DNA of 64,000 nt from a virus (taxonomy: Duplodnaviria > Caudoviricetes). Location: IMG/VR virus record IMGVR_UViG_3300046786_000293, positions 128,001-192,000 of that record; one strand, written 5' to 3'. The translations under genes and the position numbers were made by a program. Positions 146-64,000 of the stretch are shown here, one piece after another. The first letter of the stretch is position 1. Each line of letters begins with the position of its first letter. The notes beneath the pieces are model-generated. The model saw only the letters and a list, made by a program, of their open reading frames with translations. It made no database searches and had not been told where the DNA came from.

Positions 146-304
146 ATGAAATTATTAGAATGGATCAAAAGTCTATTTACAGAACGCTCATATCATGATA
201 GCGTAGAAACATTTGTCATTAGCAAGCAACCTAAGAGTACCGCAGAAGTTGAACTGTGGGTTCGCTATTATGATCAACACATTCGCGATAGAGGATTTGT
301 ATGA
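146..304 (+). CDS. small hypothetical protein, 52 aa (MKLLEWIKSLF...RGFV)
   Basis: AAGGA RBS at 134-138, upstream TAAATA at 93-98, ATGA overlap with next ORF; below the ORF-track cutoff, translated by hand. Confidence 0.7.
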   Translation: MKLLEWIKSLFTERSYHDSVETFVISKQPKSTAEVELWVRYYDQHIRDRGFV

Positions 305-396
305 AAATGCCAAAAGTTATTTGGAAAGCAATATATGAGTTTCTTAAAGAAATCGGGCACTCAAGAGCTCGCAGATCGCAAGGACTTTGGTATTAA
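301..396 (+). CDS. small hypothetical protein, 31 aa (MKMPKVIWKAIYEFLKEIGHSRARRSQGLWY)
   Basis: ATGA translational coupling to the upstream ORF. Confidence 0.5.
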   Translation: MKMPKVIWKAIYEFLKEIGHSRARRSQGLWY

Positions 397-397
397 A

Positions 398-478
398 ATG
401 AATTCCAAACCTATGTGGTTACCGATGACCGACGAAGATTGGGAGTGGGTAAACTACGGTCGATTACCTCAAAAGTAA
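398..478 (+). CDS. small hypothetical peptide, 26 aa (MNSKPMWLPMTDEDWEWVNYGRLPQK)
   Basis: TAA-A-ATG coupling; ends tail-to-tail with the 480 gene. Confidence 0.45.
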   Translation: MNSKPMWLPMTDEDWEWVNYGRLPQK

Positions 479-479
479 T

Positions 480-1235
480 TTACCTTCGTTCAATGTCCTC
501 TTCGACACAGTTTTCTCCGTACTGAATTTCTATCAACTTTAACGGTTGATCAGTTTCATTACAGAGCATATGCCACTCTCCCGTTTGAATAAATGTATTT
601 TCGTGTGCAGTCATAACACATTTTAAATCTTCATCTGTGCTACTGTCTAGTGTGTATACGTGTGCTGTGCCTTCTGCTACAAACCAAAACTCTGCACGTT
701 TTTCGTGACGTTGCATACTTAAACAAGTCTTAGGATTGACTGTAAGTTCTTTCAATTTTACGTGAGGGCCGCAAGTGTGCAATACTCTGTAGTAGCCCCA
801 ACTACGAAGGGTTTTGGGTGCTTTCCATTCTTCAAGAATCCAGCTAGAGCTATTTGCTTTATTTTCCCCGCCTACACCAAACACAAACTCTACATCATCA
901 AACACCATCTCGGGAATGTTATCTTTCGTACGATCCCCGCCGTTGGCAAAGACAATGTCGGCATCAGGATAAATTGTTTTTAATTTGTGTATAGCATCAA
1001 TGCTAGAATTATCATCGTCTTTGAATTCGATGCAATGCTTTACCATTTTTAAATTTTGAATAATAGCGCGGCGCTCGTCTACCGGCATAAAAGGCCGACC
1101 TTTTTTACGGGTAAGCCATTCATCTGAATTAATTCCTACTACTAGGAAGTCACCTAATTTACGTGCAGCTTCAAAATATGCAATATGCCCAGAATGTAGT
1201 GGATCAAATCCACCGGTTACAAGTACTATCTTCAT
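480..1235 (-). CDS. cytidylyltransferase-like (RfaE/TagD type) domain fused to a mannose-6-phosphate isomerase type II C-terminal cupin
   Basis: TGGFDPLHSGH (HxGH) and GINSDEWL motifs; C-terminal RSWGYY..LSMQRH..RAEFWFV cupin motif. Confidence 0.8.
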   Translation of the reverse strand: MKIVLVTGGFDPLHSGHIAYFEAARKLGDFLVVGINSDEWLTRKKGRPFMPVDERRAIIQNLKMVKHCIEFKDDDNSSIDAIHKLKTIYPDADIVFANGGDRTKDNIPEMVFDDVEFVFGVGGENKANSSSWILEEWKAPKTLRSWGYYRVLHTCGPHVKLKELTVNPKTCLSMQRHEKRAEFWFVAEGTAHVYTLDSSTDEDLKCVMTAHENTFIQTGEWHMLCNETDQPLKLIEIQYGENCVEEDIERR

Positions 1236-1243
1236 AAAAATAC

Positions 1244-1696
1244 TTATAGTGTTATATCTTCCATACCTGCAGTTCTGAGTCTGCTTACGTGCCCCAACAT
1301 GAAGTTTTTACTTTCTAATCCCTTCATAAGTCCTAACCATTTATTGCGGACGAGTGCGACTTCGTTAATAATAGTTTCGAAATCGATTACTTCATCTTCT
1401 CCATCCACGTATTTCTCAGCATCACGACTAGTCAAGGCACGATTGTAATTTTCTAGATATTTTTGAAAATGTTTACGACGTATTTTGCGTAATTGAATAT
1501 TAAGGTAGTTAAGTACTGCCTCAATTTCTTGAAGTTGATTAAATCGTTGTTCTGTCAAACCGGGCAAAGATGCAATATTTTTTTCCAGGTTGCCTTTAAC
1601 TGAGCAGTCATACTTTGCCTGCTCTAGTTCGTTTTCATAAAAATTGATAAAGGCAGGAATATTGCCCATATCTTGAACAACTCGATTATACCACAT
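1244..1696 (-). CDS. uvsY: UvsY-like recombination mediator
   Basis: YLENYNRALTSRDAEKYVDGE motif, helical 150 aa, close to uvsX. Confidence 0.75.
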   Translation of the reverse strand: MWYNRVVQDMGNIPAFINFYENELEQAKYDCSVKGNLEKNIASLPGLTEQRFNQLQEIEAVLNYLNIQLRKIRRKHFQKYLENYNRALTSRDAEKYVDGEDEVIDFETIINEVALVRNKWLGLMKGLESKNFMLGHVSRLRTAGMEDITL

Positions 1697-61858: not shown

Positions 61859-61859
61859 T

Positions 61860-61885
61860 AAAGCCCCGAAAGGGGCTTTATTTTT
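61860..61885 (+). terminator. intrinsic terminator after ahpD
   Basis: AAAGCCCC-GAAA-GGGGCTTT-ATTTTT. Confidence 0.85.
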
Positions 61886-61894
61886 GTAGTCAAC

Positions 61895-61915
61895 AAAAAG
61901 GGGACCTAAGTCCCC
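61895..61915 (-). terminator. intrinsic terminator after the major capsid gene
   Basis: GGGGAC-TTAG-GTCCCC-TTTTT. Confidence 0.8.
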
Positions 61916-61953
61916 AATCTGTCTTCCCATCCCTTTGAGAAAATAATCGTTGA

Positions 61954-63138
61954 TTACTGGAAGCTCAAGTTAGCTACGCTAATTTCGCTTAGGTAATCAC
62001 CAGCATTGCCTAGAGACGATGCTGTGTTTGTTAACTCAACATATCCGTAACGAGTCATAAAGCCTACGACTGGTTCGAATGTGCTTGGGTCTAGAACAAC
62101 GCCAGAGCTCATTAGAGGAATGTATGGGCAGTAGAATGCTGCGGCATCAGCCTCTGAAGAACCTTTGTATCCAACTAGAACAGCTTGGCTATCGCTAGCA
62201 TAGCTGTCAACGTAAATACGCATTGCTCCGTTTAGGGTACCAACGAACTTGGTATTTGTTGGAGCTTCGAATGTACCTTCTGTGGTACGTGCGAAAGCAG
62301 ATGTTGTTGCGCTCTGTAGAACTGTTAAAGCAGCTGGAGAAACAACAGCCCAGTTACCAGCACCACGACGTGTACGTTGTGCAATCAAGTTAGCTGCGCG
62401 GTTAATTAAAACAGCTAGAGCAGCGTGCTCGTCACCAACGAATGTAGCTGTACCAGAAACGGCAGCTTGGTCGTATGCGTAGTCTGTAGCGGCTAGAGAA
62501 CGTAGGGAACCTAGAATCTCTTGGTCGATTTCAACTGTAATTTCTTGTGCAAGAGCAGCCATGATTTCTGCTTCGATGTCCAAACCGTGCATGGATTGTG
62601 CATCTTGAGCAGCTTCAAATGTCCAACGTGCGCTTAACTTACGTGTCTTAGCTTCAACAACTTGCTTTAGAATCTGAACGTTGATCTTACGACCTGGTAC
62701 GCCTTCTAGAGCGCTTACGCTTGTAGCACGACCGGTTGTTAAAGAACCAGAATATGCTGTAGCGATTTTGAATGGGCTAAGTGCTTCGTCACCAGCTGTT
62801 GTGCTTGTGTCGAATGGACTTGGTGCTGTTGCTGTTGCTGTTTCAGCATAACGAACACGTAGAGTGTGGATCTGTGCAACAGGTCCAGTCATTGGCTGAA
62901 CACCAACGATTTCGTTAGCAATAACTGTAGGCATAACACGACGGATAACTGGAAGAATAACACGGTTAAGTGTTGCAACGTTACCTGCGCTTGTTGCGCC
63001 AGCAGTAGCATTTTCAGCTAAGTGCTTACGAGTGTTTTCAAGGATAACACCCATTGTAGTTCTGCGAGAACCGCTTAGACCTTCTAGCAGGGCATCTTTT
63101 GTTTCGCCCCAACGGCCTTCTAATAGTGCTTGTGTCAT
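61954..63138 (-). CDS. gp23: major capsid protein
   Basis: GVQPMTGP, A.TRKLSARW, EI..EID.E, FYCPYIPL, GFMTRYG. Confidence 0.97.
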   Translation of the reverse strand: MTQALLEGRWGETKDALLEGLSGSRRTTMGVILENTRKHLAENATAGATSAGNVATLNRVILPVIRRVMPTVIANEIVGVQPMTGPVAQIHTLRVRYAETATATAPSPFDTSTTAGDEALSPFKIATAYSGSLTTGRATSVSALEGVPGRKINVQILKQVVEAKTRKLSARWTFEAAQDAQSMHGLDIEAEIMAALAQEITVEIDQEILGSLRSLAATDYAYDQAAVSGTATFVGDEHAALAVLINRAANLIAQRTRRGAGNWAVVSPAALTVLQSATTSAFARTTEGTFEAPTNTKFVGTLNGAMRIYVDSYASDSQAVLVGYKGSSEADAAAFYCPYIPLMSSGVVLDPSTFEPVVGFMTRYGYVELTNTASSLGNAGDYLSEISVANLSFQ

Positions 63139-63162
63139 TTTTTTTCTTTCCTATATTAGGGT

Positions 63163-64000
63163 TTATTTAAGCCCTGCTAAACGCTTAATCTCAACGACAT
63201 TATTATCGTTGCTTTCTGCGCTGACCTTAGCAGATTTATCACCAGTAACTTCTACACGACTTTCTACTAACGCTTGCTTTTCAGCTTTTGGCGCTGCAGA
63301 GTTGTTTAGAACTGCTGGTAGATACTTTTCAAATGCAGACTTTAATTTATCAGTCTGAACATTTTCTAACAAACTAACCATAACGGTTTGTTTGTCTTTG
63401 TTTAACGGCTTCAACAAATCATTTAAAGTTTGTTGACGTTGTTGTGACTCTTTAATTACGCGAATTTCACGGTCTTTTGATTCAACTAGAGCAGCCTTTT
63501 CGCTAGCAGCATTTTTGGCTTCTGCAATTACTGCTTCTTTTTCTTCTACTGCTTTGCGTAGTTTAGCAATTTCAGTATTCTCATTTAAGTGAGTAATAGC
63601 AAATTCGCTAGCAAATGCTTCGAATAAACGACGTCCAAAATTGTTCTCGCGAGCAACTTGGATGTCTTCTTTTAGTTGAGTCAATTCTGACTCTAGCTTA
63701 TGGGCTACAGATTCTTTAACAAGTGCAGCAGAACGAGCAACAAACTGTTGTTGAAGTTGGTCTAATTTAGACTTTGCTTCACGAACTAGTTTAACTTTTG
63801 TTTCTACAACATCTTGCTTGTCTTTAGCGAATTCTTGAATTTCTTCTGATAGAGCACGAATAACAAACTTCTCTAGGCGCTGTGTGCTTTCCTTTTGTAG
63901 TTTGCGATCGCTACGCAATTCTTTAATTTCTTCTGCTAGTTTTGCAACTAGGAATTGATCAAATTTGTTAACAGACTCGCTCATACGCTTGTTAAAACGT
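63163..64000 (-). CDS. gp22: prohead core scaffold protein (5' end lies outside the window)
   Basis: coiled-coil, L-x-E rich, directly upstream of gp23; frame open to the right edge. Confidence 0.8.
   Translation of the reverse strand, partial: RFNKRMSESVNKFDQFLVAKLAEEIKELRSDRKLQKESTQRLEKFVIRALSEEIQEFAKDKQDVVETKVKLVREAKSKLDQLQQQFVARSAALVKESVAHKLESELTQLKEDIQVARENNFGRRLFEAFASEFAITHLNENTEIAKLRKAVEEKEAVIAEAKNAASEKAALVESKDREIRVIKESQQRQQTLNDLLKPLNKDKQTVMVSLLENVQTDKLKSAFEKYLPAVLNNSAAPKAEKQALVESRVEVTGDKSAKVSAESNDNNVVEIKRLAGLK

Follow-up and report, generated by a model that had tools for sequence, protein, structure and literature searches.

A CUA tRNA and a gene with an early in-frame TAG

We analyzed a 64,000-nucleotide (nt) stretch of DNA from a virus of the Caudoviricetes, hereafter the window. 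It covers bases 128001-192000 of a single 338,510-bp IMG/VR virus sequence (IMGVR_UViG_3300046786_000293; CheckV completeness 97%; G+C 39.3%) and encodes terminase, tail sheath, tube, fibres and capsid. The plus strand of the window carries a transfer RNA (tRNA) with anticodon CUA, tRNA(CUA), and a gene whose fourth codon is an in-frame TAG (Table 1). We refer to this TAG as the amber gate and to the gene as the gated gene. A preliminary description of this DNA had pointed to a CUA tRNA and to one internal TAG. Both hold: the tRNA is real and linked to the single internal TAG, and this TAG is invariant among relatives and co-occurs with the tRNA.

Table 1. Positions of the tRNA(CUA), the gated gene and associated features in the window
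Feature	Position	Strand	Remarks
Sigma-70-like promoter match, TAGACT-16-TATAAT	55569..55596	+	10 nt before the tRNA; consensus match only
tRNA, anticodon CUA, encoded CCA	55606..55679	+	Solitary; ~57 kb from the opposite-strand 39-gene island
Shine-Dalgarno sequence AAGGAG	57797..57802	+	7 nt before the gated-gene ATG
Leader ATG GCA CAA, three codons	57810..57818	+	Length (1-9 codons) and sequence vary among relatives
In-frame TAG, amber gate	57819..57821	+	Invariant in 80/80 relatives; followed by ATT/ATC/ATA
Gated-gene body, 178 codons + TAA	57822..58358	+	N-terminal beta domain and ACT/RRM-like C-terminal domain
HNH endonuclease gene	58469..58813	+	Directly behind the gated gene; context only
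Stretch without a credible TAG-ending gene	146..63984		58 called open reading frames: 45 TAA, 13 TGA

Around the start of the gated gene, the sequence is a Shine-Dalgarno (SD) motif AAGGAG, a 7-nt spacer and ATG GCA CAA TAG ATT GAA TAT GCT TGT, and the full read-through product of the gene would have 182 residues. We compared it with the best 80 of 257 IMG/VR stretches that encode a relative. All 80 showed the layout SD-ATG-(1-9 variable codons)-TAG-AT[TCA], followed by the conserved IEYAC[KR]DVVFHF, with SD motifs of the AAGGA or GGAG type at the matching position. The codon that precedes the TAG is variable, with 13 different codons among the relatives. TAG was the rarest stop in the loci of these relatives (4.2% of stops; 1159 open reading frames, ORFs), yet the gate was always TAG. 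In a genome-wide scan for an SD, a start, a short leader, a TAG and a long ORF, 57810-58358 was the only convincing case.

The gate and the tRNA co-vary among homologues

At 71 of the 80 loci, ARAGORN detected a tRNA(CUA) in the same orientation as the gated gene, and at 69 of them it lies upstream of that gene. Often less than 50 nt, and in the closest case 24 nt, separate the 3' end of the tRNA from the TAG. Among the nine loci without an ARAGORN tRNA, five have at most 206 nt of sequence upstream of the TAG, and three of those remaining carry a CUA anticodon loop and a T loop, found by regular expression, 90-350 nt upstream. In total, a co-oriented tRNA(CUA) accompanies the gate at 74 of the 75 informative loci. 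In the phage studied here, a zinc-ribbon gene and pstS separate the tRNA from the gated gene.

A profile search of 1.84 billion representatives returned 141 clusters. About 25 of these start exactly at the conserved Met, and we therefore consider their gene calls truncated. Some homologues (P0004, P0006) were deposited with the TAG read as Q; the P0006 contig starts inside a tRNA(CUA) that abuts the gene, and P0004 has an apparent tRNA 3' end beside the gene. Truly ungated homologues were also found. P0003 starts with ATG GTT GAA ATC GCA TGT and P0011 starts similarly, and the 6.7 kb upstream of P0003 and the 2.1 kb upstream of P0011 showed no CUA tRNA. In Atu_ph07 and Phosso, the domain is the C-terminal part of a longer protein that is ungated; Atu_ph07 carries neither a TAG in this homologue nor a CUA tRNA. 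The gate and the tRNA thus co-vary among homologues.

We compared 48 distinct homologous tRNAs. Their acceptor, anticodon and T stems keep pairing via compensatory changes, and G1-C72, C2-G71, A73, CCA and U33-CUA-A37-A38 are invariant. By these sequence criteria, the tRNA(CUA) is a bona fide tRNA under selection. It was close to none of the other isoacceptors of the clade, with a best mean identity of ~0.68 (Phe, Met). The CUA tRNAs of different phage lineages vary in acceptor stem and discriminator, and for this reason the identity of the inserted residue is probably unimportant, which would fit a regulatory gate. The comparison assigned no amino acid to the tRNA; Lys or Gln would be a guess, based on the residues inserted by amber suppressors of Escherichia coli with A73.

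ARAGORN labels the tRNA as tRNA-Pyl (pyrrolysine tRNA) because of the anticodon alone. The architecture of tRNA-Pyl is atypical: it lacks G18G19 and T54-psi-C, its variable loop has 3 nt and its anticodon stem is long. We rejected the label on the architecture of the tRNA itself, as the D-loop GG is canonical, the T loop is GTTCGAnTC and the variable loop has 4-5 nt.

The same gate in other phage lineages

The family is also present in a cultured T4-like Rhizobium phage, RHph_I1_18, as an unannotated 82-codon homologue (MN988519.1, about 10911-11248, minus strand) that reads MSEFM-TAG-NESCREVIFHF, with the TAG as codon 6 and AAC as the following codon. A tRNA(CUA), annotated as tRNA-Pyl(cta), lies 12 nt behind this gated ORF.

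A second gated family surfaced when the same scan was run on control genomes. These genes are PTH2-like and unrelated to the family in the window; we found no PTH2-like homologue in the genome studied here. A PTH2-like gene starting with ATG-x(1-2)-TAG is present in GAP32 (NC_019401.1, about 290126-290461), Serratia BF, CBB, RsoM2USA, ME3, Arash and LR756511, a 595-kb uncultured phage. The Serratia BF ORF (NC_041917.1 286083-286421; PF01981, E=0.006) is preceded by ATG ACG CAC TAG and lacks ATG, GTG and TTG throughout its 108 codons. These ORFs have been left unannotated or truncated in the deposited records. All phages examined carry a tRNA(CUA) (GAP32, Serratia BF, RsoM2USA, ME3, Arash and LR756511; CBB was left out), which in ME3 lies ~430 nt upstream of the PTH2-like gene (ARAGORN, whole genome). 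The PTH2-like gene of RaK2 has a plain ATG start and is ungated; neither a genome-wide pattern search nor ARAGORN on its 60-kb tRNA region found a CUA tRNA in that phage. By these comparisons, the gene in the window represents a new gated family beside the PTH2-like one.

A further candidate was noted in GAP32 at NC_019401.1 311451-311864, behind tRNA-Gly. There, ATG-CTA-TAG precedes 26 codons with a positive coding score ahead of the annotated start of GAP32_440, and the Serratia BF homologue aligns only from residue 23. This is possibly a second gated gene. We also observed a tRNA with anticodon UCA, which would read UGA, in Atu_ph07 (NC_042013.1 430713-430787), where ~37% of ORFs end in TGA. 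From its anticodon, this may be another suppressor-like tRNA in a standard-code genome.

Codons directly behind the UAG

To the first Met behind the TAG there are 23 codons, with mean diversities of 0.11, 0.04 and 0.40 at codon positions 1, 2 and 3. In the AlphaFold (AF2) model, residues 2-13 form a core beta strand (predicted local distance difference test, pLDDT, 87 overall and 93 in the N-terminal domain). Because the variation is dominated by third positions and the models place a core beta strand here with confidence, codons 1-23 behind the TAG are under purifying selection and hence translated. None of these codons is ATG, GTG or TTG, and the first canonical start is Met24. The C-terminal domain has an ACT/RRM-like structural match (Z 5.3). 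For the protein as a whole, we found no informative Atlas match and no Foldseek match in the PDB at E<=0.001; an Atlas shape search gave a TM (template modelling) score of 0.35-0.40 to a viral DUF2061 cluster.

These data bear on the possibility that the UAG is a true stop that closes a mini-ORF. The protein would then arise by re-initiation or from an internal Met, and the tRNA would serve a different purpose, for example interference with termination in the host or in competing phages. In favour of this, Met24 is invariant, and in the clade of the window the TAG is always followed by AT[TCA], of which AUU can be a weak start. Minigenes of two to four codons are moreover known as regulatory or toxic elements, as in the lambda bar minigenes. 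However, the 23 codons ahead of Met24 show strong selection at the protein level and encode a core beta strand, no SD lies ahead of the internal Met, and the Serratia BF PTH2-like ORF offers no ATG, GTG or TTG at all. A true stop could equally be TAA or TGA, yet it was TAG in every relative and co-varied with the tRNA. Re-initiation at AUU was rejected as a candidate, because the codon behind the TAG is AAC in RHph_I1_18 and GTT in P0004. Overall, we consider a mini-ORF very improbable.

The genetic code is standard

The preliminary description had suggested that UAG has been emptied of its termination role in this genome. This was not borne out. ORFs were called as non-overlapping frames of at least 50 residues, ranked by a codon-usage score trained on the long ORFs of the genome, and 9 of the 391 end in TAG. 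One of these encodes a DegT/DnrJ aminotransferase of 371 residues, in which the Pfam match runs to position 359 of 360 before the TAG; judged by this alignment, at least the DegT stop is certainly real. Read-through of this stop would lengthen the protein by 8 residues. The genome therefore still uses UAG as a stop. When genes were re-called with TAG as sense, as the preliminary description had proposed, coding coverage fell from 0.916 (code 11) to 0.889 and no genes were merged. The gains were mostly spurious 5' extensions in which a TAG lies ahead of the true start. We also tried TAG, TGA or TAA as sense genome-wide, and each reduced coverage. Because TAG as sense merges no genes and reduces coverage, the code is not code 15. 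The genome retains the standard code, in which UAG is still a stop and merely rare.

An early or partial reassignment of UAG toward code 15, in which the stop is vacated, a suppressor is acquired and in-frame TAGs begin to appear, had been the earlier interpretation. It agrees with the route from stop depletion through suppressor tRNA to recoding proposed by Borges et al. (bioRxiv 10.1101/2021.08.26.457843), and this genome has a CUA tRNA, one or two genes with an in-frame TAG and a TAG share of only 2.3% of stops though TAG trinucleotides are common (29.5% of all stop trinucleotides, both strands). Against it stand the ~9 TAG-ending ORFs with the complete DegT, the loss of coding density and the ordinary TAG usage (7-10% of stops) of the carriers ME3 and RHph_I1_18. 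As the preliminary description had stated, no structural gene contains a TAG; the same is true of the lysis genes of this genome, which also speaks against a code in transition. A single gate at one fixed position in 80 diverged relatives and in a rhizobiophage is a long-lived end state and no beginning. The pair of tRNA and gate is old and stable (48 distinct tRNAs, proteins ~65% identical, a T4-like rhizobiophage), and we consider an early state very improbable.

A release factor encoded by the phage was considered as part of a code change and rejected; only a 139-residue ORF with an RF-1 domain is present (record 111723-112142, minus strand). This ORF is ArfB-like (a stop-independent peptidyl-tRNA hydrolase), lies within the tRNA island and could rescue ribosomes that pass beyond stops.

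An internal TAG with real coding flanks was found only in 57810-58358 and in an insert in iscU. The insert, GGT-TAG-ATA-GGC (record 65414-65809, minus strand), has the same TAG-A context as the gate, and an active suppressor would there add three residues inside the PACGD cluster-ligand motif. At record 39401-39775 (minus strand), two small ORFs in the same frame are split by TAG-ATC-GGT-AAA-TAG. Read-through would fuse them, and they are probably two genes.

TAG stops are scarce in the whole genome

The 58 called ORFs of the window end in TAA (45) or TGA (13) and never in TAG, as do five more plausible ORFs that the caller dropped for overlap, among ~64 credible genes in all. The 130 TAG-ending ORFs of at least 30 residues in the window all lie inside called genes or have a negative or negligible coding score. 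The claim that TAG is never used as a stop thus stands for the window and fails for the genome, where we counted 263 TAA, 119 TGA and 9 TAG (2.3%). Zero of 58 differs from a typical phage rate of ~9% (P=0.003) and does not differ from the genome outside the window (9/333; P=0.20). At the rate of the genome itself, a sample like this would contain no TAG stop in one case out of five, and the result in the window therefore reflects a genome-wide scarcity; the genome, not the window, is unusual.

We determined the TAG share of stops in ten genomes with one ORF caller. Phages with a tRNA(CUA), here called carriers, had shares of 2.3% (this phage), 2.5% (Serratia BF), 2.7% (GAP32), 7.3% (RHph_I1_18) and 9.8% (ME3). 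Non-carriers had 4.4% (Atu_ph07), 7.2% (RHph_I1_9), 9.4% (PA5oct), 14.8% (RHph_TM30) and 16.3% (Vibrio 2.275.O). The trend toward lower shares in carriers was not significant (P=0.075, one-sided Mann-Whitney; P=0.14 with GAP32 and Serratia BF pooled), and the tRNA explains the scarcity only weakly. The preliminary description had named equal avoidance in relatives without the tRNA as evidence against its reading. We observed this in part: the non-carrier Atu_ph07 is nearly as poor in TAG, and the carriers RHph_I1_18 and ME3 use TAG normally.

The tRNA could also have shaped the stops under a standard code, if it reads UAG so efficiently that selection has removed TAG stops and left the scarcity as its footprint. 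Such a purge would account for the three lowest shares, all in carriers, for the ratio of observed to neutral TAG share, which is lowest in this phage (0.08), and for the TAA or TGA immediately after two of the TAG-ending genes. The ordinary shares of RHph_I1_18 and ME3, the low share of Atu_ph07 and the non-significant difference, to which GAP32 and Serratia BF contribute non-independently, argue in the other direction. Back-up stops behind TAG-ending genes were examined as a sign of such selection and were not enriched; 3 of 8 TAG stops have one within 3 codons (background 0.23), and the spacing is no tighter than after other stops. We regard the purge as unlikely.

A proposed dedicated tRNA for one gene

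From the observed anatomy and conservation of the gene, the co-variation of gate and tRNA and the purifying selection behind the UAG, the main purpose of the tRNA(CUA) seems to be the unlocking of a single conserved gene in its neighbourhood. We put a probability of about 0.6 on this reading, in which the phage uses the standard code with a rare UAG stop and its lone tRNA(CUA) is the dedicated partner of the gated gene. Ribosomes would initiate at the ATG with its strong SD, pass along a short leader of arbitrary sequence and reach the UAG at codon 4. The 182-residue protein would be made only if the phage suppressor tRNA beats release factor 1 (RF1). The tRNA and the gated mRNA, often on one transcript, would then form a translational AND gate or feed-forward loop, and the protein would both depend on and report UAG read-through. 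The scarcity of TAG stops would mostly be a habit of lineage or composition, reinforced at most by mild selection against read-through.

We found no phage synthetase of the glutaminyl-/glutamyl-tRNA synthetase (GlnRS/GluRS) type or of the lysyl-/aspartyl-tRNA synthetase (LysRS/AspRS) type in the genome. For this reason a host enzyme would have to charge the tRNA(CUA), which is probably done by a host synthetase. The base after the UAG is a purine, A in nearly all cases and G in two. This fits the classical context for efficient amber suppression that Bossi reportedly described in 1983.

Several points weigh against a dedicated partnership. One gated relative (L071) has no tRNA(CUA) within 7 kb, and XacN1 has CUA tRNAs with an ungated PTH2-like homologue. 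A shorter product could be made from an internal start at Met24 (Met28 of the full reading), and the concentration of the lowest TAG shares (2.3-2.7%) in carriers would also be compatible with a purge. The gated protein has no Pfam or PHROG match, and the best PDB structural match of its N-terminal domain reaches only Z 3.5. We infer from sequence that the tRNA is expressed and charged and that it reads this UAG; the role of the protein is likewise inferred, and the purpose of the gate is conjecture. By analogy with the PTH2-like partners elsewhere and the ArfB-like ORF, we conjecture that the gated protein acts in ribosome rescue.

A more elaborate version, which we find doubtful, would make the pair a self-contained sensor of UAG read-through. 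Its output would track the contest between suppressor and RF1 and act back on termination or rescue, a role suggested by the PTH2-like genes that other phages keep behind the same gate, and the near-absence of TAG stops would be the footprint of the circuit.

Relation to known systems

Autoregulation of prfB, which encodes release factor 2 (RF2), uses an early in-frame UGA that is escaped by a +1 frameshift and so senses RF2. Both there and here, an early in-frame stop would tie the synthesis of a translation-related protein to competition at the stop; here the escape would be by a dedicated suppressor tRNA instead. The PTH2-like cassettes have the same layout, with an SD-ATG, a short variable leader, a UAG, a conserved ORF without another usable start and a nearby co-oriented tRNA(CUA), whereas the protein of the window (beta domain plus ACT/RRM-like domain) is from an unrelated family. 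Code-15 phages (crAss-like, Lak and others) also combine a phage tRNA(CUA), a presumed standard-code host and a rare TAG stop, and in-frame TAGs have been proposed to regulate translation there. They differ in that dozens of late genes are involved, as against one gene and the iscU insert here. In the phage studied here, coding density is highest under code 11, the TAG keeps a fixed place 2-10 codons behind the start, and tRNA and gene are physically linked.

A synthetic feed-forward "leak dampener" with a suppressor tRNA has been built in E. coli (PMC7969014). In it, one input drives both the suppressor tRNA and an amber gene, and the protein needs both. The circuit there is engineered; the arrangement here would be a natural one, with the tRNA often less than 50 nt upstream. 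The jumbo phage XacN1 likewise combines the standard code with CUA tRNAs whose purpose is unexplained; their targets were sought and none was found (PMC5852040). Its authors looked for C-terminal extensions behind TAG, whereas the gate here is N-terminal. Iyer et al. list PTH2 in jumbo phages and do not mention the gate. Full-text literature searches returned no description of an early UAG gate linked to a suppressor tRNA encoded by a phage.

Many phages with the standard code have annotated suppressor tRNAs without a known purpose; here a target is visible. Gene callers hide such gates by choosing a later Met start or by leaving the gene unannotated. A CUA tRNA together with rare TAG stops does not imply a changing genetic code, and scarce TAG stops predict only poorly whether a phage carries a suppressor. 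The PTH2-like gate occurs in cultured phages of Cronobacter, Serratia, Acinetobacter, Salmonella and Ralstonia and the family of the window in a cultured Rhizobium phage, which makes a direct bench test of the idea feasible.

Genomic neighbourhood

The nearest cultured relatives of this phage are distant (PA5oct, Atu_ph07, Phosso and the Rak2/GAP32 group; sheath identity 37-47%), and when 11.5 kb of the window were compared with deposited phages by megablast, no close match appeared. The 39-gene tRNA island lies at 111.5-126.5 kb of the record on the minus strand. The tRNA(CUA) heads a separate plus-strand island of auxiliary genes (window 55761-61858) that encodes a zinc-ribbon protein, PstS, the gated protein, the HNH nuclease, a peroxiredoxin, a class II aldolase-like protein, a protein of the PHROG "ferredoxin" family, TerC and an AhpD-like protein. 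The HNH neighbour suggests a mobile-element neighbourhood. Behind pstS, we observed a terminator-like hairpin (window 57623-57660) followed by TAAATA, which resembles a T4 late promoter, ~150 nt ahead of the gated gene. Motifs like TAAATA precede the SD in several relatives as well.

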